Below, piece by piece: positions 29,638 through 60,345 of a stretch of DNA of 64,000 bases. Position numbers and translations under genes: made by a program. The stretch's first letter is position 1. The number at the start of each line of letters is the position of its first letter. The notes under the pieces were generated by a model. The model was not told the DNA's origin, did not search any database, and worked only from the letters and a program-made list of their open reading frames with translations. The stretch comes from Haliotis rufescens (Eukaryota): the NCBI RefSeq assembly GCF_023055435.1, contig NW_025964365.1:434001-498000 (forward strand), given 5' to 3'.

Positions 29638-29639
<2 letters not shown>

Positions 29640-29676
<37 letters not shown>

Positions 29677-30618: not shown

Positions 30619-30664
<46 letters not shown>

Positions 30665-30677: not shown

Positions 30678-31106
30678 TAAATTAATATATTTGAAATGAT
30701 TTTGCTTTGAAATTGAATGGAACATTAATGTAGCACAGAAGCCTTTATCGTTCCTGTTGGTGAAATTAACCACGTCTCCCAGTGAAAAGGAGCAGCATGG
30801 GATGTTTGAGGTGTACACGTGAATTTCAAACACCTAACTACAATGTTATGTTATATTTTAGAATTATACATTGCAACTAAAATTGGAACAGGTATACAAA
30901 ATTCGCTTGTAACACTTTAATTTGCATTTTGCTTACGTCCATTCTTGCCTGCCAGGTTGATAGTGCTGGCAATGGGGTGTTGTGGCTTTATAGGTGGCGT
31001 CACATGCCACAACGCACACATTCTAAACAACGGCGCTAAACATCCGACAGTCAGCAGTTATTGACCCCCTTCTCACGGCGTCTAAAACCCCGGTTATATA
31101 CTGCGC

Positions 31107-32830: not shown

Positions 32831-35800
32831 TCAGATAGTCCTGTGATGCTCCATGTATGCACTGATCAGCTCAGTCAGATAGTCAGGTGCTGCTCCATGT
32901 ATGCACTGATCAGCTCAGTCAGATAGTCAAGTGATGCTCCATGTATGCACTGATCAGCTCAGTCAGATAGTCAAGTGATGCTCCATGTATGCAGTGATCA
33001 GCTCAGTCAGATAGTCAGGTGCTGCTCCATGTATGCACTGATCAGCTCAGTCAGATAGTCAAGTGGTGCTCCATGTATGCACTGATCAGCTCAGTCAGAT
33101 AGTCAAGTGGTGCTCCATGTATGCACTGATCAGCTCAGTCAGATAGTCAAGTGGTGCTCCATGTATGCACTGATCAGCTCAGTCAGATAGACAGGTGATG
33201 ATCCATGTATGCAGTGATCAGCTCAGTCAGATAGTCAAGTGGTGCTCCATGTATGCAGTGATCAGCTCAGTCAGATAGTCAAGTGGTGCTCCATGTATGC
33301 ACTGATCAGCTCAGTCAGATAGTCAAGTGGTGCTCCATGTATGCACTGATCAGCTCAGTCAGATAGTCAAGTGATGCTCCATGTATGCACTGATCAGCTC
33401 AGTCAGATAGTAAGGTGATGCTCCATGTATGCACTGATCAGCTCAGTCAGATTGTCAAGTGGTGCTCCATGTATGCACTGATCAGCTCAGTCAGATAGTC
33501 AGGTGCTGCTCCATGTATGCACTGATCAGCTCAGTCAGATAGTCAAGTGGTGCTCCATGTATGCACTGATCAGCTCAGTCAGATAGTCAAGTGGTGCTCC
33601 ATGTATGCACTGATCAGCTCAGTCAGATAGTAAGGTGATGCCCCTTGTATGCACTGATCAGCTCAGTCAGATAGTCAGGTGCTCCATGTATGCACTGATC
33701 AGCTCAGTCAGATAGTCAGGTGCTGCTCCATGTATGCACTGATCAGCTCAGTCAGATAGTCAAGTGGTGCTCCATGTTTGCACTGATCAGCTCAGTCAGA
33801 TAGTCAAGTGGTGCTCCATGTATGCACTGATCAGCTCAGTCAGATAGTCAGGTGCTGCTCCATGTATGCACTGATCAGCTCAGTCAGATAGTCAAGTGAT
33901 GCTCCATGTATGCACTGATCAGCTCAGTCAGATAGTAAGGTGATGCTCCTTGTATGCTCTGATCAGCTCAGTCAGATAGTCAGATGCTGCTCCATGTATG
34001 CACTGATCAGCTCAGTCAGATAGTCAAGTGATGCTCCATGTATGCAGTGATCAGCTCAGTCAGATAGTCAAGTGATGCTCCATGTATGCAGTGATCAGCT
34101 CAGTCAGATAGTCAGGTGCTGCTCCATGTATGCACTGATCAGCTCAGTCAGATAGTCAAGTGGTGCTCCATGTATGCACTGATCAGCTCAGTCAGATAGT
34201 AAGGTGATGCTCCTTGTATGCACTGATCAGCTCAGTCAGATAGTCAGGTGCTCCATGTATGCACTGATCAGCTCAGTCAGATAGTCAGGTGCTGCTCCAT
34301 GTATGCACTGATCAGCTCAGTCAGATAGTCAAGTGGTGCTCCATGTATGCACTGATCAGCTCAGTCAGATAGTAAGGTGATGCTCCTTGTATGCACTGAT
34401 CAGCTCAGTCAGATAGTCAGGTGCTCCATGTATGCACTGATCAGCTCAGTCAGATAGTCAAGTGATGCTCCATGTATGCACTGATCAGCTCAGTCAGATA
34501 GTAAAGTGGTGCTCCATGTATGCACTGATCAGCTCAGTCAGATAGTCAAGTGGTGCTCCATGTATGCACTGATCAGCTCAGTCAGATAGTCAGGTGCTGC
34601 TCCATGTATGCACTGATCAGCTCAGTCAGATAGTCAAGTGATGCTCCATGTATGCAGTGATCAGCTCAGTCAGATAGTCAAGTGATGCTCCATGTATGCA
34701 CTGATCAGCTCAGTCAGATAGTCAGGTGATGATCCATGTATGCAGTGATCAGCTCAGTCAGATAGTCAAGTGATGCTCCATGTATGCAGTGATCAGCTCA
34801 GTCAGATAGTCAAGTGATGCTCCATGTATGCACTGATCAGCTCAGTCAGATAGTCAAGTGATGCTCCATGTATGCACTGATCAGCTCAGTCAGATAGTAA
34901 GGTGATGCTCCATGTATGCACTGATCAGCTCAGTCAGATAGTAAGGTGATGCTCCTTGTATGCACTGATCAGCTCAGTCAGATAGTCAGGTGCTGCTCCA
35001 TGTATGCACTGATCAGCTCAGTCAGATAGTCAAGTGGTGCTCCATGTATGCACTGATCAGCTCAGTCAGATAGTCAAGTGGTGCTCCATGTATGCACTGA
35101 TCAGCTCGGTCAGATAGTCAGGTGATGCTCCATGTATGCACTGATCAGCTCAGTCAGATAGTCAGGTGATGCTCCATGTATGCAGTGATCAGCTCAGTCA
35201 GATAGTCAAGTGGTGCTCCATGTATGCACTGATCAGCTCGGTCAGATAGTCAGGTGATGCTCCATGTATGCACTGATCAGCTCAGTCAGATAGTAAGGTG
35301 ATGCTCCTTGTATGCACTGATCAGCTCAGTCAGATAGTCAAGTGATGCTCCATGTATGCACTGATCAGCTCAGTCAGATAGTCAAGTGATGCTCCATGTA
35401 TGCAGTGATCAGCTCAGTCAGATAGTCAAGTGATGCTCCATGTATGCACTGATCAGCTCAGTCAGATAGTCAGGTGCTGCTCCATGTATGCACTGATCAG
35501 CTCAGTCAGATAGTCAAGTGATGCTCCATGTATGCACTGATCAGCTCAGTCAGATAGTCAAGTGGTGCTCCATGTATGCACTGATCAGCTCAGTCAGATA
35601 GTCAAGTGGTGCTCCATGTATGCACTGATCAGCTCAGTCAGATAGTCAAGTGGTGCTCCATGTATGCACTGATCAGCTCAGTCAGATAGTAAGGTGATGC
35701 TCCATGTATGCACTGATCAGCTCAGTCAGATAGTCAAGTGGTGCTCCATGTATGCACTGATCAGCTCAGTCAGATAGTCAAGTGATGCTCCATGTATGCA

Positions 35801-38458
35801 CTGATCAGCTCAGTCAGATAGTCAGGTGCTGCTCCATGTATGCACTGATCAGCTCAGTCAGTCAAGTGGTGCTCCATGTATGCACTGATCAGCTCAGTCA
35901 GATAGTCAAGTGATGCTCCATGTATGCACTGATCAGCTCAGTCAGATAGTCAAGTGATGCTCCATGTATGCACTGATCAGCTCAGTCAGATAGTCAGGTG
36001 ATGCTCCATGTATGCACTGATCAGCTCAGTCAGATAGTAAGGTGATGCTCCTTGTATGCTCTGATCAGCTCAGTCAGATAGTCAGGTGCTGCTCCATGTA
36101 TGCACTGATCAGCTCAGTCAGATAGTCAAGTGATGCTCCATGTATGCAGTGATCAGCTCAGTCAGATAGTCAAGTGATGCTCCATGTATGCAGTGATCAG
36201 CTCAGTCAGATAGTCAGGTGCTGCTCCATGTATGCACTGATCAGCTCAGTCAGATAGTCAAGTGGTGCTCCATGTATGCACTGATCAGCTCAGTCAGATA
36301 GTAAGGTGATGCTCCTTGTATGCACTGATCAGCTCAGTCAGATAGTCAGGTGCTCCATGTATGCACTGATCAGCTCAGTCAGATAGTCAGGTGCTGCTCC
36401 ATGTATGCACTGATCAGCTCAGTCAGATAGTCAAGTGGTGCTCCATGTATGCACTGATCAGCTCAGTCAGATAGTAAGGTGATGCTCCTTGTATGCACTG
36501 ATCAGCTCAGTCAGATAGTCAGGTGCTCCATGTATGCACTGATCAGCTCAGTCAGATAGTCAAGTGATGCTCCATGTATGCACTGATCAGCTCAGTCAGA
36601 TAGTAAAGTGGTGCTCCATGTATGCACTGATCAGCTCAGTCAGATAGTCAAGTGGTGCTCCATGTATGCACTGATCAGCTCAGTCAGATAGTCAGGTGCT
36701 GCTCCATGTATGCACTGATCAGCTCAGTCAGATAGTCAAGTGATGCTCCATGTATGCAGTGATCAGCTCAGTCAGATAGTCAAGTGATGCTCCATGTATG
36801 CACTGATCAGCTCAGTCAGATAGTCAGGTGATGATCCATGTATGCAGTGATCAGCTCAGTCAGATAGTCAAGTGATGCTCCATGTATGCACTGATCAGCT
36901 CAGTCAGATAGTCAAGTGATGCTCCATGTATGCACTGATCAGCTCAGCCAGATAGTCAAGTGATGCTCCATGTATGCACTGATCAGCTCAGTCAGATAGT
37001 CAAGTTATGCTCCATGTATGCACTGATCAGCTCAGTCAGATAGTAAGGTGATGCTCCTTGTATGCACTGATCAGCTCAGTCAGATAGTCAGGTGCTGCTC
37101 CATGTATGCACTGATCAGCTCAGTCAGATAGTCAAGTGGTGCTCCATGTATGCACTGATCAGCTCAGTCAGATAGTCAAGTGGTGCTCCATGTATGCACT
37201 GATCAGCTCGGTCAGATAGTCAGGTGATGCTCCATGTATGCACTGATCAGCTCAGTCAGATAGTCAGGTGATGCTCCATGTATGCAGTGATCAGCTCAGT
37301 CAGATAGTCAAGTGGTGCTCCATGTATGCACTGATCAGCTCAGTCAGATAGTCAGGTGATGCTCCATGTATGCACTGATCAGCTCAGTCAGATAGTAAGG
37401 TGATGCTCCTTGTATGCACTGATCAGCTCAGTCAGATAGTCAAGTGATGCTCCATGTATGCACTGATCAGCTCAGTCAGATAGTCAAGTGATGCTCCATG
37501 TATGCAGTGATCAGCTCAGTCAGATAGTCAAGTGATGCTCCATGTATGCACTGATCAGCTCAGTCAGATAGTCAGGTGATGCTCCATGTATGCACTGATC
37601 AGCTCAGTCAGGTAGTCAGGTGCTGCTCCATGTATGCACTGATCAGCTCAGTCAGATAGTCAAGTGATGCTCCATGTATGCACTGATCAGCTCAGTCAGA
37701 TAGTCAAGTTGTGCTCCATGTATGCACTGATCAGCTCAGTCAGATAGTCAAGTGGTGCTCCATGTATGCACTGATCTGCTCAGTCAGATAGTCAAGTGGT
37801 GCTCCATGTATGCACTGATCAGCTCAGTCAGATAGTAAGGTGATGCTCCATGTATGCACTGATCAGCTCAGTCAGATAGTCAAGTGGTGCTCCATGTATG
37901 CACTGATCAGCTCAGTCAGATAGTCAAGTGATGCTCCATGTATGCACTGATCAGCTCAGTCAGATAGTCAGGTGCTGCTCCATGTATGCACTGATCAGCT
38001 CAGTCAGTCAAGTGGTGCTCCATGTATGCACTGATCAGCTCAGTCAGATAGTCAAGTGATGCTCCATGTATGCACTGATCAGCTCAGTCAGATAGTCAAG
38101 TGATGCTCCATGTATGCACTGATCAGCTCAGTCAGATAGTCAGGTGATGCTCCATGTATGCACTGATCAGCTCAGTCAGATAGTCAAGTGGTGCTCCATG
38201 TATGCACTGATCAGCTCAGTCAGATAGTCAAGTGGTGCTCCATGTATGCACTGATCAGCTCAGTCAGATAGTAAGGTGATGCTCCATGTATGCACTGATC
38301 AGCTCAGTCAGATAGTAAGGTGATGCTCCATGTATGCAGTGATCAGCTCAGTCAGATAGTCAGGTGCTCCCTGTAGTCACTGATCAGCTCAGTCAGATAG
38401 TCAGGTGCTGCTCCATGTATGCACTGATCAGCTCAGTCAGATAGTCAGGTGCTGCTCC
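32831..38458. repeat. 44-bp satellite array, ~128 copies
   Basis: Unit TCAGATAGTCAAGTGATGCTCCATGTATGCACTGATCAGCTCAG, period 44. Variation is mostly confined to one short patch (caagtgatg/caagtggtg/caggtgctg/aaggtgatg). Confidence 0.98.
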
Positions 38459-39060
38459 AAATGAATTTGTGCATCTCCTACTGTCAACTGGCTGTGTGAC
38501 TTTTATTGAGCAGCAGCTGATTACTCCGAACGACCATAGCCTCTGTCCTCTCATCGTTTAGCTGGAGCGTTTGGGCAGTCATCCATTCTTTCATTTCTTG
38601 TGTGCAACTTCAGTGTAAAAGTAACTGAAGTTACTTGGTATTCGTCCGCGTAAAATTAAAGGCTAATGTTATGCTTGTCGGTAGTATCCCCAAGGGGACA
38701 CATATATTCTAGTAACAAAATTGGGACGAGGACTCAACCCTGCGGGACCCCAAGGGGTTCAGTTCTCCGCTTCCACTTTAACAGACTGGGATCTGCCAGC
38801 CAGGTAGGACATGAAGCAGTCAAATGCCATTCCTTCGATTCCAGTCTGATCCTTCAGTGTGGAGAGGAGTTTGTCAAGACGATATTATTAAAGGCATGGC
38901 TCAGATGCCATGGACATGGTACGCCATATTACCGGAATCAACTGTATATCTCAGACCATTTAGCACCCTCAGTAACGGCGTCTCGTGCTGCGGTGATTGG
39001 AATTTGTCCAAAAGCTAATGTTTGGAGATGTCTCTTTGTCGAGGATTGTGATCATACATT
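38459..39060 (-). mobile_element. Decayed L2/CR1-group LINE ORF2 (reverse transcriptase) remnant
   Basis: Minus-strand translation with stops and frameshifts: LLDKFQS, ETPLLRVLNGL..VDSG, LSHAFNNI, GVPQG*VLVPILLLEYMCPLGD (38751 down), FYADE (38655 down), CTQEMKEWMTAQTLQLNDERTE. These match L2-type RT motifs in the right order. Confidence 0.85.
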
Positions 39061-41932: not shown

Positions 41933-43303
41933 ATGGCGGGAGTGTTTGAGAGTCTGAAGGGTGCCGGTGCCATTGGCATCGTTGTTCTTGTTCTTGCTCT
42001 TGTAGGGAACATATGTAACTGGATAGCCTTTACTACCGCAGCATGGGCTCGTGAATTTCCAGATACAAATAAGGAGACTTTCACTGGCTACGGGCTGTGG
42101 AGAATATGTGGAACAGGCACAGATACCGGCTTCGGTAAAGTTGTATCTGGATGCACCCAGATAGACGGAACCAATCTCGGTAAAGTATATTATCCTTTCA
42201 TTAAACAATATTCTATTATAGAGATATATAATATTTGATTAGAGTTCTCCTATTCATGGGGTGATTTATGGGGGGGGGGGGATGTTCGGACAATGACAAT
42301 GTAATAGTAAAACCCGGGAAACAAAGATGCACCAAGACCATAGCTGCTTCAATATATTCAAAAACCATTGGCCCCTTTGGGCACATTAATGATAACATCG
42401 TTCGCCTGTCACGCCGAAGATCAGTAAGGGTAAGGGTGTATGGTTTGGGTTTCAGCGTATTATGGCGCTGTTCAGGCTTTGGTATCAATTGGATTTCTGG
42501 GACTCAACGCAATGTGCCTCATCATCATCCTCAAGATATTCACAAGCAAGTGTGCCGACGTCTCCGACATCGATAAAGTCAACGGCATCCAAGCTATCGT
42601 TACAGGTATGGCGTCAAACAACTCACACTAACATTATTGATTCAGTTCAGTTTGACCTGAACAAGAAGTAAACAATACCTGAAGAATACAGTGCTTACCT
42701 TTTTCTTATATGATTCATGTTTTTTACCGTTTGTAATGTTAATCAATATATTGCACTAATGCATTTTTTGTGTCAGATTATAACAACTTGTTGTTGTTGA
42801 TTTTTGATAATTTAAAAACAATTCGAATGGTTAATTGACAATTGCTGATTACTAGGTCACACGTGTTCACATCACTTTATTTGATATGAGTATAATGCCT
42901 GTTTCTAGTTAAGACTACAACACTAACGATTTCACCTTTCATAGCATAGCCTAAATGATTATAACCTTGAAGTTTTTATGTCTACTCAAATGTAATTATG
43001 CAACAAGGAGCGTAATTTGAATAAACCAGTAAGGCCTGTTTACCAATCCCTTTCAAGTAAAGTTGAATAAAATATGTTTAATCTGTATCATTTCCAGGTG
43101 TTCTTTACTTGATCGGCATCATTATATTTGGTGCGGAATACGGCAATGGAGACAAACTTCGTAACGTAGTCGGTACCACTACCGTGGATGGCGACCTGGG
43201 CTACTCATTCGTCTTTGCTGTGTTCGCCATGTTGCTTGAGATCGTTGTCGGCGTTGTGCTTCTTGTGACCAGCCTCAAAGGTGGATCTGTGGCCGCCAAA
43301 TAG
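41933..43303 (+). CDS. Claudin/PMP22/EMP-family tetraspan membrane protein, copy A, 3 exons, 200 aa
   Basis: Exons 41933-42179, 42456-42605, 43098-43303 (GT-AG, both introns phase 1, 603 nt). Four hydrophobic segments; loop-1 signature W...YGLWRIC...C; AVQA at the start of TM2; LGYSF before TM4. Confidence 0.9.
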
Positions 43304-43797
43304 TAACCACTATATAAAGTCAGGGGGATTGGAGAATATTCTGCTGTGTTGTGGAAGGATGAAATCGACACAACAAATGTTGTCAAGTCAAGTTCCCCTG
43401 CAGGAAGTACTCCCACCCTGTGACGAGGCTTCACTTTGAATTCTTTACAATACCAGTGTGATGGTGATTTCCTTATATCCCCTTGAACAATGCTTGTCAT
43501 ATACAATATCCCTGTCGAATTTCTTGAATGAGATGCCAGCTACTATGACTGGAACTATGCAAACCAGACTTAACCTATTTTTCACCAGAAGTCTCACTTC
43601 AATGACGATGGGTACTATGCAAACTGTTTACCGTCGGAAAATAAAAGAAATGAATCAAATTGTTTTTACTTTTTCCCAATGAGTTTTGTCGTTTCTATTA
43701 CTTAGACGTTAATATTAACAATATCCATAAATGACCAGACTACAACACACCACACCACGCCGCGCCACGCCACGCCACGCCACGCCACACTACACTG

Positions 43798-44056
43798 ACC
43801 CGTGAAGATCTGGGTTAGAATTAGTCTTTAGCAAACCATGCTTGCCATAAAGGGGACTATGCTTGTCGTGAGAGGAGACAAACGGCATCGGGTGGACAGG
43901 TTCGCTCACTTGGTTGATGCATGTCATCTTATCCCAATGGATTGATGCTCATGATGTTAATCACTGGATTGACTGGTCCAAACTCGATTATTTACAGAAC
44001 GCCGTCATGTTACTGAAATATTGCTGAGTGCGGCGTTAAACAACAAACAGACAAAC
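43798..44056 (+). mobile_element. SINE-like family D downstream of tetraspan copy A (paralog 50774-51008)
   Basis: Begins ACCCGTGAAGATCTGGGTTAGAAT; ends GCGGCGTTAAACAACAAAC. Confidence 0.85.
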
Positions 44057-46799
44057 ACCATACAAAAGCGACATTAACCCTGTTGTGCTCTTTCAATGTT
44101 TTGAGATTGTAATAACCATAACATAGCAGACACAATACACTCTCAAATCGACCACGTACACCTTCACAACTGGTAACGTATACGTACACACAGAGCATAC
44201 TATGTTCCATAGCGTGAACGCTTGATTGAGATGTATTGTTGTCTAGTCTCCCATGTAAGTGGTCATGACATGAATAATGTGTACTGTGGAAGTATATAAT
44301 ATTTGAATACTTCTTGTTGTCAAGCCGGCTATTCTCAACCAAGTACCTATAGCATTCATACTGCCATATCACAGACAATCAGGTAATTTCGAAAACACAG
44401 CTTGCAGTTAAATATTGTGCTGAATAATGTGATTTGTTATAGTTATTGTTATGGTTATATCATGTATACGGTAATTGTATGAGCCATAGATTCAAATGAA
44501 TGTTTGCGCACTTATGACTTAACAAACATTGATTGACGATTGATTCTTAACCATTTTCTTACACTATTCGGGGTTTGGACCAATGTGACAAAATTTCAGT
44601 TTGGTAACCTTTCTTTTGCTCGTCAGTTTTATCTGTTAATATGTAATATGTATCACATGTACTTGTCGATCAACTTTATTTCGTAATTCAGGCCGCATTG
44701 CCCAAAGTGCAGATGAAAGAAGAATCATATTAAAGTCACATGCCCAGCGTGTTAGACACTCGCTATCTCATTATTTAAAAATCTTACATAAATTTAGACC
44801 TATAAAACTTACAACATTAATAGCACATTCATACAAAAAGGACATCGTATTCATCCTCTACTTAACGAAGGTTATTCGGGGTTTGGACCCAACGTGTCAA
44901 GCTGTCAGTTTGGGAACCTTTTATGGCTCGTCAGTTTTAGCTGTTGGATAACATGTATCATATGTACTAGTCGATCAACTTTATATTTCGTAATTCAGGC
45001 CACACTGCACATAGTGCAGATGAAAGATGAATCATATTAAAGTCACATGCCCAGCGTGTCACTTTAAATAGTTTACATAAATATAGAACTATAAAACATA
45101 GAACAATAATAGCACTTAAGTTATACTTATTTGCCAACGTAATTCTACCTTTATCATATTTCTGGAATGAGATAAGACAACTATTTCGATAGAGACTATA
45201 ATTCTTACATACAAAAAAAGACATTGCATTCATCTCCACTAAATGAAGGTCACTGTCTTTACATACTGAATCTGTATAAGGTATAGTTAACGCTGACTTT
45301 TCGCAAATAATGTTTACTCGACAGTTGTTTAGAGACTTTCGAAGTTTGCACATTGCTCTAACAAATCGTTTGTCTCTCGGTACAGTTATATAAAACACAG
45401 GTTATAGAAGATATTTTATATGAACAAAATGCACTAGAAAGACAGAAACCTCCAAACTTCGGTACAATATTTGGAACAAAAGTATCTGTTTAACGTCTTT
45501 TGAATGCATACAAACCTCTTCGTATCCCCTACATCAACCACACACACGCAAAGCCATGATTAAATAACATTTGTTAACATACGATGCCCTATTCACTTTA
45601 ATATTCTCCGCCAATAATTTAAACAGAACATAACTTGTGAAGGGGTATCGACTTGCATTCACTCACAAAAACTTAATCCAGTACTTCAGTGCCCTTATTG
45701 GCGTATTTAAAAACATAAATTTGAGACCAGATATTTTGCAGCTGCTGCAAAATCATGCAACAATGTCATATTTAAGGCCGTCAAGTACTTCTTTTTCGAA
45801 ATAAAATGAAGCTTAATTATTTTTTTCAAGAATATTCTTTTTCGATGAAATTCCAGCTGTCCATAGTAATACTGCGGTATGGTATCTCAATGGCCAAGCT
45901 CTATACATCCGTAGTTAGTCNNNNNNNNNNNNNNNNNNNNNNNNNNNNNNNNNNNNNNNNNNNNNNNNNNNNNNNNNNNNNNNNNNNNNNNNNNNNNNNN
46001 NNNNNNNNNNNNNNNNNNNNNNNNNNNNNNNNNNNNNNNNNNNNNNNNNNNNNNNNNNNNNNNNNNNNNNNNNNNNNNNNNNNNNNNNNNNNNNNNNNNN
46101 NNNNNNNNNNNNNNNNNNNNNNNNNNNNNNNNNNNNNNNNNNNNNNNNNNNNNNNNNNNNNNNNNNNNNNNNNNNNNNNNNNNNNNNNNNNNNNNNNNNN
46201 NNNNNNNNNNNNNNNNNNNNNNNNNNNNNNNNNNNNNNNNNNNNNNNNNNNNNNNNNNNNNNNNNNNNNNNNNNNNNNNNNNNNNNNNNNNNNNNNNNNN
46301 NNNNNNNNNNNNNNNNNNNNNNNNNNNNNNNNNNNNNNNNNNNNNNNNNNNNNNNNNNNNNNNNNNNNNNNNNNNNNNNNNNNNNNNNNNNNNNNNNNNN
46401 NNNNNNNNNNNNNNNNNNNNNNNNNNNNNNNNNNNNNNNNNNNNNNNNNNNNNNNNNNNNNNNNNNNNNNNNNNNNNNNNNNNNNNNNNNNNNGAAGTAC
46501 TCTGCACTAATGACCTCACCTTTATTTGAAATCAATATCAATGCGATCGTAAAGACCATTCTCTGATCTATTTGGTATGTTTATTCATAAATCCATTCGC
46601 ATAGTATGAAAACAGGGCAGGCTGCGTCCAGTTCAATGAAGCAGGCTTGTGAAGGCTCTACAAAGCAGTATAGAAACATTCCATTCCACTCGTTATGTGA
46701 AACATGCGTTGCCAGTAACATGATGACAAATATACTGGAATAACTTGAAGGGTTATGTATGATTCGCTATGTATGAGATCATTCTTTGTTATAATCTTT

Positions 46800-48695
46800 T
46801 CTGCACCCCGAGTTTCATATAACTGTACTCAGAGACAAACGCTTTGATGGAGCAATGTGTAAATTTCGAATATTCTCGGAACAACTTTCGACATTAATAT
46901 TATTATGTGAAAAATCAACATTACATATACCTTATACAAATTCTGAATGTAAAGACAGTAACCTTCGTAGAGGATGAATACGTTGTCTTTTTTGTATGTA
47001 AGCGCTATTAATGTTGTAAGTTTTATAGGTCTAAATTTATGTAAGATATTTAAAATGAGATGGCGAGAGTGTAACACGCTGGGCATGTGACTTTAATATG
47101 ATTCATCTTTCATCTGCACTATGTGCAGTGTGGCCTGAATTACGAAATATAAAGTTGATCGACTAGTACATATGATACATGTTATCCAACAGCTAAAACT
47201 GACGAGCAATAAAAGGTATTTGGTTGAGAATAGCCGGCTTGACAACAAGAAGTATTTATATATCATATACTTCCACAGTGCAAATTATTCATGACAGGAA
47301 CACTTACATATACATGGGAGACCAGACAACAATATGTGTCAATCGAGCGTTCACGCTATGGAACATAGTATAATCTGTGTGTACGTATACGTTACCAGTT
47401 GTGAAGGTGTACGTGGTCGAGAGAAAGTGTATTGCGTCTACTATGTTACGGTTATTACAATCTCAGAACATTGAAAGAGCACAACTATGTTTAATGTCGC
47501 TTTTGTGTGGTGTTTGTTTGCTTGACAGTGGTACTGAAGGGAGTACGTAGTTTGTCTCTATTCCCGTATTCCGCACCGAATATAATGATGCCCACCAAGT
47601 AAAGAAAACCTGGAAATTATATAGTGTAAAAATATCTAATTCAACACTTTACTTGAAAGGGATCGGTAAACAAGCCTTACTGGCTTATTGAAATTACGCT
47701 CACTGTTACATAAATACATTTGTGTAGACATAAAAATTTCAAGGTTTTAAATAACTTAGGCTATAGTAGGAAACGTGAATATATGAGAGTTGGAGACCAA
47801 ACTAGAAACAGGCATTATATATACTCTTTTTAAATAAAGTGATGTATACTCGTGTCGCCTAAATATCAGCAATGTCAAATAACCAATCGTATTGCATTAA
47901 AGTTATTATCAACAAAAAACACACCTGTAAGTAAGAGTGTTCATACGATAGGGGCGAATATATATTGAAAAACAAACGGAACTTCAGTCTTGATTTCCAC
48001 ATAGTCAACTTTTTAGGGTGCTTAATACAAGTTTTCATAAGGTGAGACAAAAAATGCATTAATGCAACAGCTTGAAAAACATAACAAACTGGAAGAACAT
48101 GAATGATTTAAGAAAGAGGGAAACACTATTTTATTCATGGAGCTTTTACTCCTTGTTCCGGTCAAACTGAACTGATTCAATTATGTTAGTGTGAGTTGTT
48201 TGGATGTTGTTGACTTTATTTGTGATGTAGCATTTTGGACACTTGTCCAGTGGAAGTCAGCTTGGCTCTTCATAACAAGCAGGAAATTGAGTTAGTTTGC
48301 TGTCTCCTAGCATGTACGCCCCCGATCCCAGCAAATCCGGAGACTGTAGAGAACTTTACAAAAGCTGCAGTCAAAGGTATCTTCCAGGTGAAGAAATATA
48401 TAGACATTGTGAAGAGACATTATATGTTCTGACATGTGAGTAGGGATAAACTTAACATAAAAATGCCCCTTTTCGTACACTTACAAATACTGTATTTATA
48501 TGTCTGTAACTCTCCTATGGAGGAATAAAGAATATATGTATATACCAAAGCCTGAACAGCGCCATACTACGCTGAAACCCAAACCATAAACTCTTATTTA
48601 CTGTTCGTCAACGTGACAGGCGAACAATTTCACCTTTTATCAGCCCAAAGGAGCTAATGGTTGTTGATCATATTGAAGCAGCTATGGTCTTGGTG
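46800..48695 (-). pseudogene. Inverted, deleted fragment of a tetraspan paralog (part of intron 1, start of exon 2 with TAG, intron 2, half of exon 3, 3' flank)
   Basis: Reverse complement of 48543-48571 is the exon 2 start CG TAG TAT GGC GCT GTT CAG GCT TTG GTA (in-frame stop). RC of ~47522-47609 is GFLYLVGIIIFGAEYGNRDKLRTPFSTTV (truncated exon 3). 46800-47520 is RC of the 3' flanks seen at 44050-45400 and 51000-52050. Confidence 0.85.
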
Positions 48696-48833
48696 ACAAT
48701 GTTGTAGCAACAGCCATGCAAATGACAAGGTGAGAAATTGCTTAGGAAACAGAATTAAAACAGTCGAAGAACTGGTCGGTTGTATTTTCATGTCAACTTA
48801 TAACGGCAGAACCATCGTCTAGTTATACATAAC

Positions 48834-50192
48834 ATGGCGGGAGTGTTTGATAGTCTGAAGGGTGCCGGTGCCATTGGCATCGTTGTTCTTGTTCTTGCTC
48901 TTTTAGGGAACATATGTAACTGGATAGCCTTTACTACCACAGCATGGGCTCGTCAATTTACAAATACAAATAAGGAGACTTTCACTGGCAACGGGCTGTG
49001 GAGAATATGTGGAACAGGCACAGATACCGGCTTCGGTAAAGTTGTATCTGCATGCACCCAGATAGACGGAACCAATCTCGGTAAAGTATATTATCCTTTT
49101 ATCAAACAACATTCTATTATAGATATATATATTATATTTGATTAGAGTTTTTTCTATTTATGGGGTGATTTATGGGGGAATATGTTCGGACAATGACCAT
49201 AGCTATGCTAATAGTAAAACCCGGGAAACAAGGATGCACCAAGAACATAGCTGCTTCAATATGTTCAAAAAACATTGGCTCTTTGGACACATTAATTATA
49301 ACGTCGTTCGCCTGTCACGCCGAAGATCAGTAGGTAAGAGTTTCTGGTTTGGGTTTCAGCGTATTATGGCGCTGTTCAGGCTTTGGTATCAATTGGATTT
49401 CTGGGACTCAACGCAATGTGCCTCATCATCATCCTCAAGATGTTCACAAAGCAGTGTGCCGACGTCTCCGACATCGATAAAGTCAACGGCATTCAAGCTA
49501 TCGTTACAGGTATGGCGTCAAACAACTCACACTAACATTATTGATTCAGTTCGGTTTGACCTGTACAAGAAGTAAACAATACCTGTAGACATTTGTACTG
49601 TCCTCTTTCCCATATCATTCATGTTTGCAATGTTCATCAATATTTTGCATTGATGCATTTTTTGTGTTACCTCATGATAAAACGTTGACCTAATTATGTG
49701 GAAACATCGTATGAACACTATCAATTCCCAGGTGTGTTTTTGTTTTTTGTTTTAAGACAATACGATTTGATAACTGACAATTGCTGATATTTAAGTGACA
49801 CGAGCAGACATCACTATATTTGAAATGAGTATAATGCATGTTTCTAGTTAAGCCTCCTACACTAACGTATTTATCTTTCATACCATAGCCTAAATTATTT
49901 TGTGTCTACACAAATGTAATTATGTAACAAGGAGCGTAAATTGAATAAGCCAGTAAGGGCTGTTTACAAATCCCTTTTATTTCCAGGTGTTCTTTACTTG
50001 ATCGGCATCATAATATTCGGTGCGGAATACGGTAATGGAGGCAAACTACGTGCTGCCATCGGTGGCACTGTCGTGGACGGCGACCTGGGCTACTCATTCA
50101 TCTTGGCTGTGTTCGCCATGGTGTTGGAGATCGTTGTCGGCGTTGTTCTGCTTGTGACCGGCCTCAAAGGTGGATCTGTGGCCGCCAAATAG
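48834..50192 (+). CDS. Claudin/PMP22-family tetraspan protein, copy B, 3 exons, 200 aa
   Basis: Exons 48834-49080, 49360-49509, 49987-50192. Intact frame; W...NGLWRIC...C and LGYSF motifs. Confidence 0.87.
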
Positions 50193-53100
50193 TAACCACT
50201 GTATAAAGTCAGGGGGACTGGAGAATATTCTGTTGTGTCGTGGAAGGATGAAGTTGACACAACAAATGTTGTCAAGTCAAGTTCCCCTGCAGGAAGTACT
50301 CCCACCCTGTGACGAGGCTTCACTTTGAACTTCTTATCTTGCCTTCTTTACAATACCATTGTGATGGTGATTTCCTTATATCCCCTTGAACAATGCTTGT
50401 CATATACAATATCACGGCCGAATGTCTTGAATGAGATGTCAGCTACTATGACCGGAACTATGGAAACCAGGCTTAAACTATTTTTCACCTGAAGTCTCAC
50501 TTCAATGAAGATGGGTATTATGTAAATTGTTTATTTTCGGAAAATAAAAGAAATGAATCAAAGTGTTTTTACAATTTTACAATTAGTTTTATCGCTTCTA
50601 TTCCTTAGACGTTAATATTAACAATATNNNNNNNNNNNNNNNNNNNNNNNNNNNNNNNNNNNNNNNNNNNNNNNNNNNNNNNNNNNNNNNNNNNNNNNNN
50701 NNNNNNNNNNNNNNNNNNNNNNNNNNNNNNNNNNNNNNNNNNNNNNNNNNNNNNNNNNNNNNNNNNNNNNNNNTTAGAATTGGTCTTTAGCAAACCATGC
50801 TTGCCGTAAAAGCGATCATGCCATAAAAGGCGACCAACGGCATCGGATGGACAGGTTCGCACACTTGGTTGATGCATGTCATCGTATCCCAATAGCGTGG
50901 ATGGATGCTCATGATGTTAATCACTGGATTGTCTGGTCCAAACTTGATTATTTACAGAACGCCGTCATGTTACTGAAATATTGCGGCGTTACACAATAAA
51001 CAAACAAACACCATACAAAGCGATATTAACCCAGTTGTGCTCTTTCAATGCTCTGAGATTGTAATAACCATAACATAGCAGACACAATACACTCTCTCTC
51101 TTCGACCTCGAACACCTTCAGAACTGGTGACGTATACGTACACACAGAGCATACTATGTTCCATAGCGTGAACGTTTGATTGAGATGTATTGTTGTCTAG
51201 TCTCCCATGTTAGTGTTCCTGTCATGAATAATGTGTACTGTGGAAGTATATAAAATATAAATACTTCTTGTTGTCAAGCCGGCTATTCTCAACCAAATAC
51301 CTATAGTATCCGTACTGCCACATCACAAACAATGATGTAATTTCGAAAACACAGCTTGCTGTCAAATATTGTGCTGAATAATGTGATTTGTTTTTGTTAT
51401 CATGTATACGGTAATCGTTTGAGCCATAGATACAAATGAATGTTTGAGCACAAATAACCTTACAAAACATTGATTGGCGATTGATTCTCAACCATTTCCT
51501 TACATTATTCGAGGTTTCCACCCAACGTGTCAAAATTTCAGTTTGGTACCGCTTTCTTGCTCGTCAGTTTTAGCTGTTGGATAATAGGTATCATTTGTAC
51601 GAGTCAATCAACTTTATTTCGTAATTCAGGCCACATTGCCCATACTGCAGATGAAAGATGAATCATATATTAAAGTCACATGCCCAGCGTGGCACATACC
51701 CATCCTATTTTGGATATGTCACCTAAATATAGACCTATCCAACTTAGAACATTAATAGAACTTAAGAAAAGACAATTGCAAACGTAATACTAACTTTATG
51801 ATATTTCTGTAATGAGACAAGCAAACTATTTTTCAACAGAGTCTATTTCTTACGTACAAAAAGTGCATTGCATTCATCCTCTACTAAATGAAGGTCACTG
51901 TCTTCACATGCAGAGTCTGTTTACGGTATTAAATGTTGGTTTTTCACAAAATAATGTTGACTCGAAAGTTGTTTAGAGACTTTCGAAGTTTACACATTGC
52001 TCAAACAAATCGTTTGTCTCTGAGTACAGTTATATAAAACTTAGGTTGCAGAAAGGATTAGATATTCACTACAAAGGTAGAAACCTCCAAACTTTGGTAC
52101 TATGTTTGGAAATAAATATCTGTTAAACGTCATCTTCATGCAATGGCCTATCCTCTTATAATTTAAGCAGAACGTAACTTTGGAAGGGGTATCGACTTGC
52201 ATTCAATCGAAGAAGCTTAATCCAGTACTTCCTTGCCCTTGTTGGCGTGTTGATAAACATACAATGACCATCAGTTTCACCCAGAACATCTTTTTGCTGA
52301 AGATTGCTGAATCATTACCCACTCCCCCCAAAAAGTTTACATTAGCATACTTGTATCTTTTCAAATGGGGCATGATATTTAATACCCCACACTTCAAAAC
52401 CATACATCAATATTCGAGAGATTTTAGTACTGTCTACAATTTCCTTTTCCAATAACATGAAGAGTAATTAAACTTTTTCAAGAATTTCGGGGAAACTATA
52501 ATTTATTCGAAAACATCCAAGCTGTCTGAGTGTAGTATTCATGTATAGTATGGTATCTCAATGGGCTAGGACTATAAATGCGTCAGTAGTCGAAACAGCT
52601 AATTCATAGAATAGTACTTTTTTCAGTCATTGTCCGTAGATATATTTAGATAATTATATCTACAATTACAGGTTGCAAAGTTGTGCTTACTACAATATTC
52701 AAAGGATGTTTGACGATACATTTCGTGCAGAAAACACAATAGAAATCTACAAAGAGAATATATTTTAAATATTTGGGACAACAGAGAGCATGGAATTTGG
52801 CGCTTTTCTATATGCGACCGTGACGTCATATCTTTTGCGTCACAGTGAGAGATATGACGTCATACTGGTGACGTGCGGTGGAGAACGAAAGCTTTGCAAA
52901 GCTTGCTTAGTTATCTTTAGGGGTAACTTATGTTAGCTGACCAAGTTGGCGTGCTCATATGCTTTCAATGCCTGTTATATGTTCGAGGGAAGTATTACAT
53001 AGGCACGTCGTACTGTAAACAAACTGCTTGCGCATATACAGCGCGATATTTTGTTTACAGGCTGTTGTCGGTAATTCCGTAATTTAACCCACTCAAAATA

Positions 53101-53670
53101 CTGGACTCAAACCATACCGCTTCTCTAAATAAAGATGCTAACACCAAAGAGTTTTTTTGATCATGGTAGAATAGAGATAAACACCTTAATATCTTGAAGA
53201 TTTATGTACGCGTTGCTGTGTACGGGATCATTTCATGAATGTTCCTATATAAGTACAATTATAGGGAACGCGACGTTTAATCCCATTTCACCGCACCTTA
53301 CCTTATTTTAAATCAATATCAATGCGATCGTAAAGACCATTTTTTAATCTTTTTGTAATGTTTGTTTATAAATCCATTCACATAGTATGAAAACAAGTTG
53401 GCAGGTTGAGACAAGATTTAGAGACGTCTCCATTTGAAATATGTATTGTCAGTCACATGATGACAAATATACTCGAATAACTTGAAGGTTTATGTATGCG
53501 TCGCTGTGTTCGAGATCATTTTTTGTTGCGTTATCGACCAATCATGTTACAATATGTTGTAGCAACAGATTTTTTTGCTTAGACAACAGACTTAAAACAG
53601 TCGAAGAACTGGTCGGTTGTCATTTCATGTAAACTTATAACGGCAGAACCTTCGTCTCCTTACACATAAT

Positions 53671-55143
53671 ATGGCGGGAGTGTTTGAGAGTCTGAAGGGT
53701 GCCGGTGCCATTGGCATCGTTGTTTTCGTTCTTGCTCTTATAGGGAACATTTGTAATTGGATAGCCTTTACTACCGCAGCATGGGCTCGTAAATTTACAA
53801 ATACAAATAAGGAGACTTTCACTGGCTACGGGCTGTGGAGAATGTGTGGAACAGGCACCGATAGTGTTGTATCTGCATGCGCCCAGATTGACGGAACCAA
53901 TCTCGGTAAAGTATATTATCCTTTTATTAAACAACATTCTATTATATAGATATATGTTATATTTGATTAGAGTTTTTCTATTTATGGGGTGATGTATGGT
54001 GGTAAATGTTCGGACAATGACAATAGCTATGCTATAATAGTAAAACCCGGGAAACAAAGATACATGTATCGTGAAACCAAGCCCATAGCTGCTTCAATAT
54101 GTTCAAAAAACATTGGCCCCTTTGGGCAGATTAATGATAAATCGTGTCGCCTGTCACGCCGAAGATCAGGAGGTAATGGTTTATGGTTTGGGTTTCAGCG
54201 TATTATGGCGCTGTTCAGGCTTTGGTATCAATTGGATTTCTGGGACTCAACGCAATGTGCCTCATCATCATCCTCAAGATGTTCACAAGCAAGTGTGCCG
54301 ACGTCTCCGACATCGATAAAGTCAACGGCATCCAAGCTATCGTTACAGGTATGGCGTCAAACAACTCACACTAACATTATTGATTCAGTTCAGTTTGACC
54401 TGAACAAGAAGTAAAAGAAACATGAAGAAAATTGTTTTAACCTCTTTCCCATATTATTCATCTTTTTCCCGTTGGTAATGTTTATCAATAAATTGCACTG
54501 ATGCATTTTTGTCAGCTTATAACAATTTGTATTTAGTACCAAAACATATTGACATAATTATGTGGAAACTCAGGCTGAAGTTACGTTTGTGTTTCAATAT
54601 ATATACTCGTCCCGGTCGTATGAACACTGTAACAGGTATATTTATGTTAATAATAATTTTAAAACTATACGAATGGTTAACTGACAATTGCTGATAATTA
54701 GGTTGCATGTGTACACATCACTTTATTTAAAATGAGTATAATGTCTGTTTCTAGTTTAGACTCCTAAACTAACGTGTTATTGTTTCATACCATAGCTTAA
54801 ATTATTTAAAACCTTGAAGTTTTTACGTCTACACAAATGTATTTATGTAACAGGGAGTGTAATTTGAATAAGCCAGTAAGGCCTGTTTACAATCCCTTTC
54901 AAGTAAAGTTGAATAAAATATGTTTAAACTGTATCATTTCCAGGTGTTCTTTACTTGATCGGCATCATTATATTCGGTGCGGAATACGGCAATGGAGACA
55001 AACTTCGCAATACATCCATTGCCGTGGATGGCGACCTGGGCTACTCATTCGTCTTTGCTGTGTTCGCCATGTTGTTGGAGATCGTTGTAGGCGTTGTTCT
55101 GCTTGTGACCGGCCTCAAAGGTGGATCTGTGGCCGCCAAATAG
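53671..55143 (+). CDS. Claudin/PMP22-family tetraspan protein, copy C, 3 exons, 194 aa
   Basis: Exons 53671-53905, 54199-54348, 54944-55143. Relative to copies A/B it has in-frame 12-nt (loop 1) and 6-nt (loop 2) length differences. Confidence 0.9.
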
Positions 55144-57110
55144 TAACCACTGTATAAAAGTCAGGTGGGATGGGAGCATGTTCTGCTGTGTTGTGGAAGG
55201 ATGAAGTCGACACAACAAATGTTGTCAAGTCAAGTTCCCCTGCAGGAAGTACTCCCACCCTGTGACGAGGCTTCACTTTATACTTCTTATCTTGCCTTCT
55301 TTACAATACCATTGTGATGGCGATTTCCTTATATCCCCTTGAACAATGCTTGTCATATACAATATCCCTGTCGAATTTCTTGTATGAGATGTCAGCTACT
55401 ATGACTGGAACTATACAAACCAGGCTTAAACTATTTCTGATAACAAATCTCAGCTTAATGTAGATGGATATTATGCAAACTCAACTATTTATCTAAAAAT
55501 AATTGAAACCATCAAAATATTTGAAAGGGGGTCACTATTTTGAAATGAAAGTCATTTTAATTTATTTTTAATTTAGACCTTTGGCTGTCATTAAATGTGT
55601 AATGATATTTGTACTAGGTTGTGTTCGTATAGCTGACAAATGATCGTTGCTCTCTTTATCAGCTCATGGCAAACCATACACCTGGTGTCCTCACTATTTG
55701 ATATTGGTTCATAAATATATGCTTTGGATATTGTCGGAATCGTATATTGATTCTAGATTGCTTATGATTATGGAAATAGTTTTGTATCTTTTATTTCTTA
55801 GACGTAATATTAATTTGTACCTCCGTGAATATAGTTCATATAAATAATTTATTTTACAGTCTCTTTTAGTGTTTGTCATAATTTGAAAGTAAATACAAGC
55901 TGAAGGTATGAACATGCATTGGCTTTGCGCTGCACTACATTACACTACATTACACTAAACCTCCTCTCCACTCCCCACCACGCCCCGCCCGACCCCACCC
56001 CACTGCACTCTACTCCAGTTATCTTACGTTGTATTATCTCTCTCTTTGTCTGTCGCGACTCCCTACCCCCCCCCCCCCCCCCCTTCCACACACACGCGCG
56101 CACGCACACACACACACACACACACACATTTTTCTCTTTCAGTCCCAACGTTGTATAGATATTATATTTCATTACACCTTAGTACGGAAAGTGTATTTGT
56201 TATTTGAATATGTTTTTAACGACATGTGTTATGACAACAGAGCAATGCTTACACATGACAGCCGAAACAAGCCCCACCTTCAACCTGTGTATAACACCTG
56301 GTCTACCTCATACTGGGTGTGTGCGTCTGGCAATGAAACTAGGCAGGTCGCGAAGACTGAGTAGAATATAATAGCCTCCTCTTTTGAGAAAAGCTGTCAG
56401 TGATATGCAGTTATATTGTGAATGGCACACGAATGTCTGTGTCAGGATTGTGCGTTCAGTCACCATGACATGGGTCGTCAAAACACGCCACATAACCTTG
56501 TCCTATCTCGCGGGGAGCGGTCAGTCCGATGATCATATTAAACATCTTCCTCTCGTGGTGGTGGGGGTAGGGGGTGAGGGGGGGGGGGGGGGGGGGGCAG
56601 TTGATTCTGCACGCGATTGTGCATTTAACTTTCCTTGTCATCGATCGACTTCACGTCCAGTTACATATGTGCACTTACACATTTACTCGTCGATTAACGC
56701 TTAAACTACCGCGGCAAGCATCGGAGTTTTAAAACATGTGTCAACTCGTGTTGATATTTTTCATATCAAAATATATTCTTTCAATCCTTCGTTAAAGTCC
56801 GCAACGACAGTTTCCCGACGAGCGACTGGTGTTAAATTGCAAAGCTGGCTCTTTCTTATTTACCATAGTCCGTTTGGCTACAAATGAGAACGATGAATTG
56901 CAAAATAACTCAAAATAGGGAAAAGTCTATTAAATGTAAGAAAAAACAAGTCAGACGTGCAGTTGTTAAACTGCATTCAGAAAATAGGTACCTGTCACTG
57001 AGACCTCAAAAGACTGGAATATACTGTGGCATGGTGTCAGTGTGATCCAGGACACCCCTCAAACTTATATAAGTACCCTCTTTTTACCAAGATGTCAAAG
57101 ACCGTCATAC

Positions 57111-57388
57111 GTGAGTGAGTGAGTTGGTTTAATGCCGCTTTTAACAGTATTCCAGTTATCTCGCGGCGTGTCAGCTTAATGTGGGAGGAAAGCCCGAAGT
57201 GATGCAGGTCTCAGACGTTTAACACTTCGGTGAAACCCACGAACACGGGTATGGTGCTGACAAACTAGAAACATAATCGGGGCGAACCGGGATTCGAACC
57301 CACAATCATAGGTTTCTGGCGTGCCCAAGGGACGCAACTCTGCACAGCGAATCTCGGCGCCTTAGACGACTGGGCCACCCGTGCCCCC
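57111..57388 (-). mobile_element. SINE family B, full length
   Basis: RC of 62937-63217; imperfect TSD AAGACCGTCATACG / AAGATCGGCATACG. Confidence 0.9.
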
Positions 57389-57508
57389 AAGATCGGCATA
57401 CGACTCGTGCTCAAAAGGTATTTTATCGTGGTTGCAATATACATGGGCGTTCGGTAAGCTTTTTATGGTAGACATGTGGAGGACATTTCCAATTTTGGTA
57501 CATCAGTT

Positions 57509-57675
57509 GGGGCGGTGGGGTGACCTAGTGGTTAAAGCGTTCGCACGTCACGCCGAAGGCTCGGGTTCGATTCCCCTCATGGATACAAAGTGTGAAGCCC
57601 ATTTCTAATGATCCCCACCTTGATATTGCTAGAATATTGCTAAAAGCGGCTTAAAACCATACTCACTCACTCACT
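57509..57675 (+). mobile_element. SINE family A, diverged
   Basis: Same layout; flanking repeat TGGTACATC. Confidence 0.85.
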
Positions 57676-60098
57676 GGTACATCCGGTACAAAAATGTCCG
57701 ATTCAGTTCCCTATTTTGACTTGTACCATATGTCCCCCTGGGTTTTTTTTCAGGTGATCAATTGACTTGCCTTTGAAAGTGTTTGTGTTGGATGCCACCG
57801 GTGAGTCAGGATACGCTCATCTTTTGGCGAACACTGGTGTCATCACTATTTGATAGTGGTTCATGCTTATGACACAGTCGGAATCTACAGTTGACTCTGC
57901 TTTTTGGGGAGATTTCTTATGTCTATTGAAACGGTTTTGAAGGCTTTATTATCAGTATAAAATCAAACTTCAACCCGAAGAACTTATACCTGGTAAAGGT
58001 TCTTGTAATGCAATATCTGTTGATTCCTTGGACGGTAAACTGTATTTCAACACGGCTTCATTCAAGCTGTGCGAACTCGCTGATAAGCAAGCTCTGGAGA
58101 GCAGCATTGAATATTATTATTATTTTTATAATTAAAAACTGAGTTCATTTTTTTATGAACTGGGAAAAACGTTAGTCAAGTAACCGACCGCCTAACGGGA
58201 TTACTCTGGGCTCACTTATACCTGTCGACATTTACTCGTCGATTAACGGCAAGCATCGGAGTTTTAAACATTTGTCAACTCGTATTTTTTATATTAAAAT
58301 ATATTCTTTCAATCCTTCGTTAAAGTCCACAACGACAGTTTCCCGAGGAGCGACTGGTATTAAATTGCAAAGCTGGCTCTTTCTTATTTACCATCACAGT
58401 CCGTTTGGCTACAAATGAGAACGATGAATTGCCAAACAACTCAAAATAGGGAATAGTCTACTAAATGTAAGAAAAAACAAGTCAGACGTGCAGTTGTTAA
58501 ACTGCATACAGAAAACAGGTACATGTCAATAAGACTTAAAGAAATACCTTAAAGGGTACATGATTAAATTGTTACAAAATACAAGTTATGGCAACTTGAT
58601 GTTGAAAAGCTAGAAAATGAATTCCTTTGACGCGAAACTGTCAACGAGATAGGGTCAAGATACTGGTCATGTGCTGGACTTCAGCAAGCAACAGCCCCAC
58701 CTATATATTTGTGACCATCACCAGTGACACAAGCAATTCCGACGACCATGGCTGTGACATGAGAGTCAGAATGCGATAAAAACAATTCATGAGACGACCC
58801 CTCTTATGCTGTTACCTCCTGTGCCGTTGCGTAGCGCGTACAGTACGAGAATCGCGCTGTTCCTCTTACCGTTATTATCCCCTCCGTTCAAGATGTCAAA
58901 GTGAACACATAACAACATGATAGTTTCTTAGACAACTTGTTCCAGTGATGGGAATAAAATGAACAAACAGCAGATATTGTTATATATAGAGTATAGAGAT
59001 ATATAGAGTATTCATTGCCGTGTACGGTATCGACATATTAAAGATTATTCCCGATTTTGAGTTATTTTGCAATTCATCGATCTCATTCGATGCCAAATGA
59101 GCTGTAATGTTTATGAAGTATTTTGTTGATGCAAAGCATGTTGCTATAGTCATGACCACCTCATTGTCACGTGCGCTTTCATAAGCACACATGTTATGGT
59201 ACTTAGGTCATTAAATCCTACACATATTTGTTACTAGAATGTCAAGACCATGCCCAAGCCTAGGCTAGATTAAAACAAGAATTGCAGTTAGATCCGCTAT
59301 CTGTCATAGATCTCCTAAAGCCAAGAGATGCAATAGCGAAGGCCAAACTGACTCTATTTCTGAGAGATGGACAGCTACTCGAACGTATATAAACAGAGCA
59401 GCCAAGGATAAAAATGAAATCATATCAATAAAAGAAAACAGAAATCATATCAATACAAAAACAGAAATTATGTGAATACCAAACTCACAATAAATATGTG
59501 TACCCTAACCACACACAGGAGTCCCAAAGAGGGACAGGTCTGCCGAAATTGCTCAGGCAGAAGGCGACCTCTTAAACACTTAATGCAACAACAACAACGC
59601 ACATATTCTCAAGTCAAACACACAGTGTATGAACGTTCTTTGGCCACCTTGCAACCATTGTCATACTGGATCGAAAACGTATGAACCCAAGTACAAGACA
59701 CGAAAAATTCATTTCAATCGATTATATTCCTTCTATAGAAACCCCTCTGCAACCCATAACAGTCACGCATTTGAAGCACAGAGCGGGTTTTCGGTTCTTT
59801 CATACAAACAGTTACCCGCACAAAAGAATTTGCTCAAAAGACTCGCACTGACATCTTAATATTGCAGTTGTGTACAGTTATTATGATATGACGGGTGTTA
59901 TAGGCTACAAAAAGCTGCATAGAACCTTTGTGTTGAATTCCTGTCAAGGCCAATAAGACATTCAACACATCCTTAATGGAATACCTATAACAGTAACTAA
60001 TGCCCCGATATTTTGGAGACGGACATACAGAGGGTGTTCATATTGATATGATACAGTTGGGGTTGGTATGTTATCTGATATAGCTGTCTAAGTGAGCC

Positions 60099-60345
60099 AT
60101 GACAGGTGTAGTGGAAAGTTTGAAGGCGGCTCCCCTGCTGAAACGGATCATCTTTATTCTGGTTCTTGTGACTCAGTTTTTTAACTGGTTGTCTTTTACC
60201 ACCCCTGCTTGGGCCCGACGCTTCACGACACTGTCCGGGAACGGCGATGACCACATCGGCTACGGCTTGTGGAGAAGCTGTTCAAACGTGGGAACAGCAG
60301 TCAATCCGATCCCAAATTGCTTTCCATTAGATGGCGCCAATCTGG
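60099..60345 (+). CDS. Divergent claudin/PMP22-family paralog D, coding exon 1 (downstream exons beyond window)
   Basis: MTGVVESLKA...NWLSFTTPAWARRF...GYGLWRSC...CFPLDGANL. Same 247-nt length and phase-1 GTAAGT donor as exon 1 of copies A/B. Confidence 0.85.

Follow-up and report, generated by a model that had tools for sequence, protein, structure and literature searches.

A tandem array of PMP22/claudin-superfamily genes in the red abalone, with a modest selection signal at the tip of a predicted extracellular loop

The window considered here is a stretch of 64,000 nucleotides from the red abalone, Haliotis rufescens (NW_025964365.1:434001-498000). It carries three closely similar genes, called A, B, and C, an inverted broken copy, and the first exon of a further gene, D. 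Exons 2-3 of D, followed by the intact genes E and F, lie past the window end (contig ~498030-510210). Together, these form a tandem array of six intact genes (A to F) and one inverted broken copy. An earlier reading of the letters of this stretch (here, the sequence-only reading) had proposed a young claudin-like family whose hypervariable loops diversify under selection, with a charge switch in loop 1 and perhaps gene conversion in the membrane core.

The genes are annotated as uncharacterised, and no literature on the cluster was found among listings and abstract beginnings. The main text of PMC13229213 and PMC9936805, in the passages covered, makes no mention of a claudin or an epithelial membrane protein; their supplementary gene lists may still contain these genes.

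The array and its proteins

The members of the array that lie in the window are these, with positions counted from its first nucleotide:

41933-43303, plus strand: copy A, 200 amino acids; exons 41933-42179, 42456-42605, and 43098-43303; LOC124121483; from the gene model and spliced contigs
46790-48695, minus strand: inverted broken copy, from sequence comparison
48834-50192, plus strand: copy B, 200 amino acids; exons 48834-49080, 49360-49509, and 49987-50192; LOC124121484
53671-55143, plus strand: copy C, 194 amino acids; exons 53671-53905, 54199-54348, and 54944-55143; LOC124121489
60099-60345, plus strand: exon 1 of copy D, a protein of 236 amino acids; LOC124121478

A, B, and C are three-exon genes with GT..AG introns, and the models of these three and of D are identical to the NCBI H. 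rufescens proteins. Copy C has a deletion of four amino acids in loop 1 and, in loop 2, a deletion of two amino acids and an N-T-S sequon. The broken copy consists, in order, of a partial intron 1, 30 nt from the start of exon 2 that include an in-frame TAG (48571-48542), an unrelated insert, intron 2, a remnant of exon 3 that ends in loop 2 (47609-47524), and 3' flank. Its diagnostic bases are present in all three same-species DNA runs. Lying some 150 bp ahead of the B start codon, it cuts B off from upstream sequence that runs uninterrupted in A and C, and by this position it may affect the B promoter. The loop-2 peptides quoted in the sequence-only reading, including that of the minus-strand broken copy, were recovered when read again from the sequence.

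All three proteins match the Pfam family PF00822, scoring 52.2, 49.8, and 58.1 bits against a curated cut-off of 26.7. The AlphaFold2 model (predicted local distance difference test, pLDDT, of 75; predicted template modelling score, pTM, of 0.72) has four helices and a five-strand extracellular sheet. Its structural match to claudin-15 has Z 15.5 and a root-mean-square deviation of 3.5 over 173 aligned residues, and here claudin-15, TARPs, and MP20 tie (Z 14.9-15.5). A search of the PDB with a 44-sequence profile puts TARP gamma-2 (E 1e-11) slightly ahead of claudin-18 (2e-9), and the top Foldseek rows are mostly TARPs. A single-sequence PDB search gives weak matches (E 0.12-0.36).

A PDZ ligand at a C-terminus has a hydrophobic last residue; looked for at the ends of A, B, and C, all of which end SVAAK, none was found. 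Many invertebrate superfamily members likewise lack one (PMC3879130). The loop-1 signature is present (W38, G54-L55-W56, C59, C74), with a spacing between the cysteines of 14 in A and B and 10 in C, that of A and B exceeding the family motif, W(X>8)GLWXXC(X8-10)C (PMC3879130). The Pfam match, the topology of the model, and the structural comparison agree with the sequence-only reading that these proteins belong to the claudin superfamily. Given the tied scores and the lack of a PDZ-type end, they are PMP22/claudin-superfamily tetraspans that stand at least as near to TARPs or MP20 as to claudins, and are not demonstrably claudins in the strict sense.

A Pfam search of the genome, scored exon by exon and yielding no copy number, gave five weak PF00822 exon matches on another contig (38.6-45.4 Mb). 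These fall below the cut-off and suggest further family members.

Paralogy, expression, and probable gene conversion

The introns of A, B, and C differ by 8-15%, and lengthy matches to exon 1 and to intron 2 plus exon 3, sought in the assembly, were found nowhere besides this locus. The black abalone, H. cracherodii, has three close copies together with counterparts of D, E, and F. The three lie on one 70.6 Mb sequence, and one carries the C-type two-residue deletion in loop 2. Because the black abalone has counterparts of all six genes, A, B, and C are true paralogues and not uncollapsed alleles of one locus, an alternative that would have refuted the sequence-only reading.

Since three close copies are found in both species, the triplication predates their split, dated to 4.3 million years (My) ago (10.1101/2024.09.16.613283). 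At the rate given in that source, the intron distances would correspond, very roughly, to tens of millions of years. "Young" describes A, B, and C but not the rest of the family, and even these three are older than the split from the black abalone.

As to expression, each of four RNA-like runs gave a contig joining exons across an intron, and two of them gave a single contig over all three A-type exons. The A type is transcribed and spliced, which for this type answers the concern that the copies might not be expressed. A 74-nt piece of C-type loop 2 appeared in one run. No B-type piece is listed in the four, but these are contig data and exons 1-2 are near-identical between copies; the idea that B is silent was dropped, since with such gaps a missing B piece is no evidence. 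A very abundant transcribed short repeat lies 3' of the 3' untranslated regions of A and B (43790-44060 and 50774-51000) and dominates RNA depth. Intron 2 contains another, dissimilar repeat, which is dispersed and about 120 bp long.

Three same-species DNA runs gave the B loop type in three, the C type in two, and the A type in one, in contigs that drop variants and cannot measure allele diversity. Of the six intact-type loop-2 contigs listed, five agree with the reference at every site given, and the sixth, changed at one base, has Ala159, as in the black abalone. The absence of a type from a run was considered as copy-number polymorphism or as allelism of A and C, and set aside: A and C share their loop flanks, and the assembler may drop one branch. 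A run labelled as another species contains an A-type loop that differs by one synonymous change. It also contains a B-like type (L154, V155, A156, F157, V161) whose F157 and V161 are shared with the broken copy. Word-limited searches found no full-length A/B/C-type protein of H. rubra or H. asinina, though their D, E, or F was found; one exon-1 fragment protein groups with A, B, and C. Across these runs, the loop-2 types look stable and copy-specific, the B lineage being the most changed, and do not look hypervariable within species.

Exon 2 of A and C differs at one of 150 nt, exactly as had been noticed from the sequence. This identity extends into the intron:

54199-54393, plus strand: likely conversion tract; exon 2 and the first 45 nt of C intron 2, with no silent difference from A

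Over these 36 synonymous and 45 intron sites, the lack of any silent difference between A and C has P <=0.0015 for rates of 0.08-0.18. Nine sites separate the possible histories of the copies in the two species, the black-abalone side of the comparison being protein data. Two group by species (site 27, III versus MMM; site 73, GAA versus VVV). The remaining seven (41, 53, 156, the deletion, 160, 171, and 191) group by copy; at sites 6 and 110, the state of A in one species is that of B in the other. Gene conversion thus likely acts among A, B, and C, and the homogenised membrane core that had been suspected gains support from sites 27 and 73 and from the A/C tract.

Possible selection at the loop-2 tip

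The variation that matters most for interpretation lies in a short segment of loop 2:

43163-43183, plus strand: loop-2 tip of A, codons 155-161, which carry the selection signal; predicted to face outward, within residues 150-161 of the model, where pLDDT is <50

Over the three copies, changes per site rise from 0.033 in exon 2 through 0.085 (exon 1), 0.15 (intron 1), and 0.27 (core of intron 2) to 0.49 in codons 151-163. The membrane core is constrained. Comparing site models M1a and M2a on A, B, and C gives a likelihood-ratio test (LRT) statistic of 9.27 (p=0.0097), with omega2, the nonsynonymous-to-synonymous rate ratio (omega) of the class free to exceed 1, at 4.6. Null simulations with neutral loops never reached this value, whether rates were uniform (0/52) or regional (0/52), and the test still gives p=0.04 when double and triple hits are allowed. 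Adjacent changes cluster weakly in introns (P 0.14, 0.54) and slightly more where the sequence is coding (P 0.03); mutations that hit several bases at once can thus account for the signal only in part. Against intron yardsticks, the omega of the tip is 2.0-3.9. Among six proteins, residue 155 has five states and residues 159 and 161 have four each.

A comparison between species points the same way. Between red and black abalone, the loops of A, B, and C differ at 27 of 219 residues (one of the 27 hand-counted across an alignment gap), against 12 of 286 for D/E/F/G (p=0.001); the cores are alike (16/348 versus 13/451, p=0.25). A neutral distance of ~0.023, derived from the rate, date, and diversity of 10.1101/2024.09.16.613283, predicts 11-13 loop changes.

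Several results weigh against selection. The codon fits come from our own code, not PAML, and use three coding sequences; the tip segment was picked after the data were seen, and without codons 155-161 the signal is lost (p=0.42). If loop 2 is given its own rate, omega falls to 0.8-1.0 (p 0.64-1.0), because synonymous differences there are also high (pS, the proportion of synonymous sites that differ, is 0.25-0.44). The site-model check that had been proposed, run here as the M1a/M2a fit, thus gives a signal on the whole gene that vanishes against local synonymous rates. For loop 2 as a whole, omega is 1.0-2.0 (p 0.90-0.03). Of the windows along intron 2, 6% match the divergence of the tip; this intron and loop 2 have diverged to about the same extent, and the peak of divergence in loop 2 is therefore not diagnostic. 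The species comparison counts conversion events repeatedly; a hand count without them gives ~20 loop changes. Its neutral distance is derived, not measured, and at 0.05 the excess vanishes. Bearing on that distance are copy D, which has no loop differences between red and black abalone and 5 in the 45 residues of its tail, and copy F (contig 507011-510212), with 13 substitutions in 202 residues plus a two-residue indel, 8 of them in loops. Finally, the A-type loop 2 is nearly unchanged in the runs of two other species.

The signal is, in sum, real but modest, narrow, and confined to codons 155-161, and we hold positive selection at the tip to be slightly the better bet. In C, the N-T-S glycosylation sequon of loop 2 (window 55009-55017) is absent from A, from B, and from the black-abalone C. 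D keeps an N-x-S in loop 2 in three species.

The explanation we prefer, to which we would give an even chance, is a six-gene array with a broken copy, in which A, B, and C likely undergo conversion and the loop-2 tip has diverged, probably by positive selection. Here, unequal crossing-over would have created A, B, and C before the red and black abalones split. Short conversion tracts would then have homogenised the first transmembrane segment, exon 2, and parts of the fourth transmembrane segment and the 3' untranslated region, and the loop-2 tip would have escaped them and accumulated repeated amino-acid changes. The proteins would most likely act as adhesion or junction components of epithelial membranes. 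By analogy with the variable region of extracellular segment 2 (ECS2) in claudins, the exposed tip would most likely meet an outside partner, for example a pathogen adhesin or a pore-forming toxin.

Drift is the serious competitor, a credible account that we place somewhat short of an even chance. It assumes the same array and the same conversion, with a disordered tip that is unconstrained (omega ~1) and escapes conversion mechanically, and with B and C partly redundant and decaying. The omega of 0.8-1.0 against the local synonymous rate is what this account expects, as are a value of 1.04 against the intron-2 core, counting-method ratios of nonsynonymous to synonymous differences (pN/pS) of 0.6-1.15 for the loops, and a tip that equals the top 6% of intron-2 windows. 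Loop 2 is, moreover, variable in length and sequence in all mollusc relatives, and a broken copy already lies within the array, interrupting the region upstream of B. What drift explains poorly is a site test that stays significant with multi-base hits and that neutral-loop simulations fail to reproduce, the persistence of three intact copies in each of two species over at least 4.3 My (10.1101/2024.09.16.613283), and an interspecies rate of loop change in A, B, and C roughly three times that in D-G.

A stronger form of the selective account would make the array a set of receptors in an arms race. Three loop-2 types would have been held for more than 4 My against conversion, the tip would be the docking site of an adhesin or toxin, and silent or broken copies would act as donors refreshing the expressed copy. 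We consider this unlikely.

Other readings and known systems

The proteins might instead be auxiliary subunits of ion channels (TARP/gamma-like or LHFPL-like), with the loop changes tuning channel partners. TARP gamma-2 does lead the PDB profile matches, and TARPs fill most of the top Foldseek rows; but TARP entries dominate the PDB, the structural scores tie, and the abalone proteins have neither a long cytoplasmic tail nor a PDZ ligand. We regard this as improbable.

Exon 1 had supplied the first hint of selection. Here, A and B differ at 8 of 247 nt, all nonsynonymous, and six of the eight fall in residues 34-86; the substitutions, their amino-acid pairs, and their placement in or at the start of loop 1 are all as the sequence-only reading gave them. 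Under neutrality, a ratio of 8:0 has P=0.09-0.10. A-B is also the most extreme of the three possible pairs, with 9 nonsynonymous and 6 synonymous differences in each of the other two, A-C and B-C. Divergence between A and B is 3.2% in exon 1 versus 8.6% in intron 1 and 13.6% in intron 2. The site test on exon 1 alone gives p=0.50, and the omega of loop 1 is 0.4-0.7 against intron yardsticks. The ratio was thus rejected as a sign of selection: the pattern is real, and not beyond chance. Of the diversifying selection once proposed for both loops, the modest signal at codons 155-161 survives and that in exon 1 and loop 1 does not.

The other feature of exon 1 is a site with four different residues:

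Codon 41, plus strand: A 42053-42055 GAA (Glu); B 48954-48956 CAA; C 53791-53793 AAA; D 60219-60221 CGC

These codons are those reported from the sequence alone. The site has a posterior of 0.98 in the whole-gene fit and four states in six proteins. It had been read as a charge switch, in which residue 41 (E/Q/K/R) would tune paracellular ion selectivity in the manner of vertebrate claudins. The predicted model puts the residue on the first beta strand of loop 1. The black-abalone A and B copies retain E and Q here, flanked by two sites homogenised within species, and loop 1 carries a net charge of -1 in A and of +1 in both B and C. That B and C are equal undercuts the switch, as does the Leu at residue 41 of the cracherodii C copy; close relatives have L, T, A, N, and others there. 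Three-state columns are as common in introns (11/693 sites) as in exon 1 (2/235). The register of the conserved Trp/Cys motif presumably places the pore sites of claudin-10a/b at 43, 44, 62, 73, and 75, which excludes residue 41. By the same register, only D44 of A is charged among these positions, and one A-type RNA contig has T43 and N44, so the charge at 44 is not fixed. The claudin-10a/b pore-lining sites are those listed in PMC10970694. PMC3879130 reports no evidence that worm claudins control paracellular ions. The E/Q/K/R site looks like an ordinary variable position, off the known selectivity sites, and we judge the charge switch very improbable. Nearby, residue 53, which directly precedes the GLW motif (window 48990-48992), is Asn in B and Tyr in A and C; the B copy of the black abalone shares the Asn.

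We scarcely credit that A, B, and C are alleles or haplotypes placed in tandem by the assembler, or strong copy-number variation between animals: the source contig is 1.9 Mb and each same-species DNA run gives two of the three loop-2 types, but contigs drop variants, so a missing type is no proof of absence, the introns differ far beyond the intraspecific diversity near 1% of the black abalone (10.1101/2024.09.16.613283), and the three matching copies of that species share one long sequence. Copy-number polymorphism in itself may exist.

Elsewhere in the window lie a tandem array of a 44-bp unit (32831-38459; 128 copies, 94% identity) and an unrelated local segmental duplication (3885-12706 and 14616-22133; 86-94% identity) with 27-29-bp minisatellites. 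A trinucleotide-repeat tract (29587-30833) with a 288-bp higher-order unit has long low-complexity open frames and is probably no gene.

Mollusc members of this superfamily are almost unstudied. If the tip is indeed under selection, it marks a host surface targeted by some ligand in one abalone species that is farmed and another that is endangered and hit by disease, and it offers a seven-residue target for swap experiments. If it is not, the array reflects ordinary birth-and-death evolution with patchy conversion and is a good illustration of conversion mimicking selection in a small set of paralogues.

Among known systems, the pfam00822 proteins of C. elegans (CLC-1 to 5, NSY-4, VAB-9, HPO-30) are likewise divergent invertebrate members, several without a PDZ ligand, and among Atlas clusters, those of nematode claudin-like proteins come nearest (0.94). 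Worm HPO-30 has been linked to toxin resistance (PMC3879130). They are not demonstrable orthologues of the abalone proteins, and PMC3879130, in the passages covered, describes no recently duplicated genes whose loops are under selection.

Vertebrate tight-junction claudins (claudin-4, -10, -15, -19) are alike in fold and topology, with variation concentrated between the third transmembrane segment and the last strand, and their variable region in ECS2 has been discussed as a site of toxin specificity (PMC5028891). The abalone proteins differ in having 12-14% identity to them, no PDZ-type end, and mostly uncharged residues at the known selectivity positions. The enterotoxin-binding ECS2 residues of claudin-4 (D146, L151, S154) have no recognisable match in the abalone loop 2, which here includes the low-pLDDT segment.

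The red and green opsins resemble A, B, and C in having species-shared sites beside copy-specific ones, with a peak of divergence within the coding sequence (PMC3924837). In the opsins, the flanking introns stay homogenised (PMC3924837), whereas the abalone intron 2 has diverged along with loop 2 (core 0.27 versus tip 0.49 changes per site).

The closest relatives are the mollusc PMP22/EMP/MP20/claudin clade (PF00822, PF13903; Patella, Aplysia, Mytilus), which shares with A, B, and C the fold, the Pfam match, and the W...GLW-x2-C...C pattern. Its members in limpets, Aplysia, and mussels, named "epithelial membrane protein 1-like" or "CACNG5-like", are 34-42% identical to the abalone proteins. 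Relative to this clade, A, B, and C stand apart in their cysteine spacing and in having SVAAK in place of its T-S-P tail, and they are a recent local triplication, 90-92% identical, with conversion.

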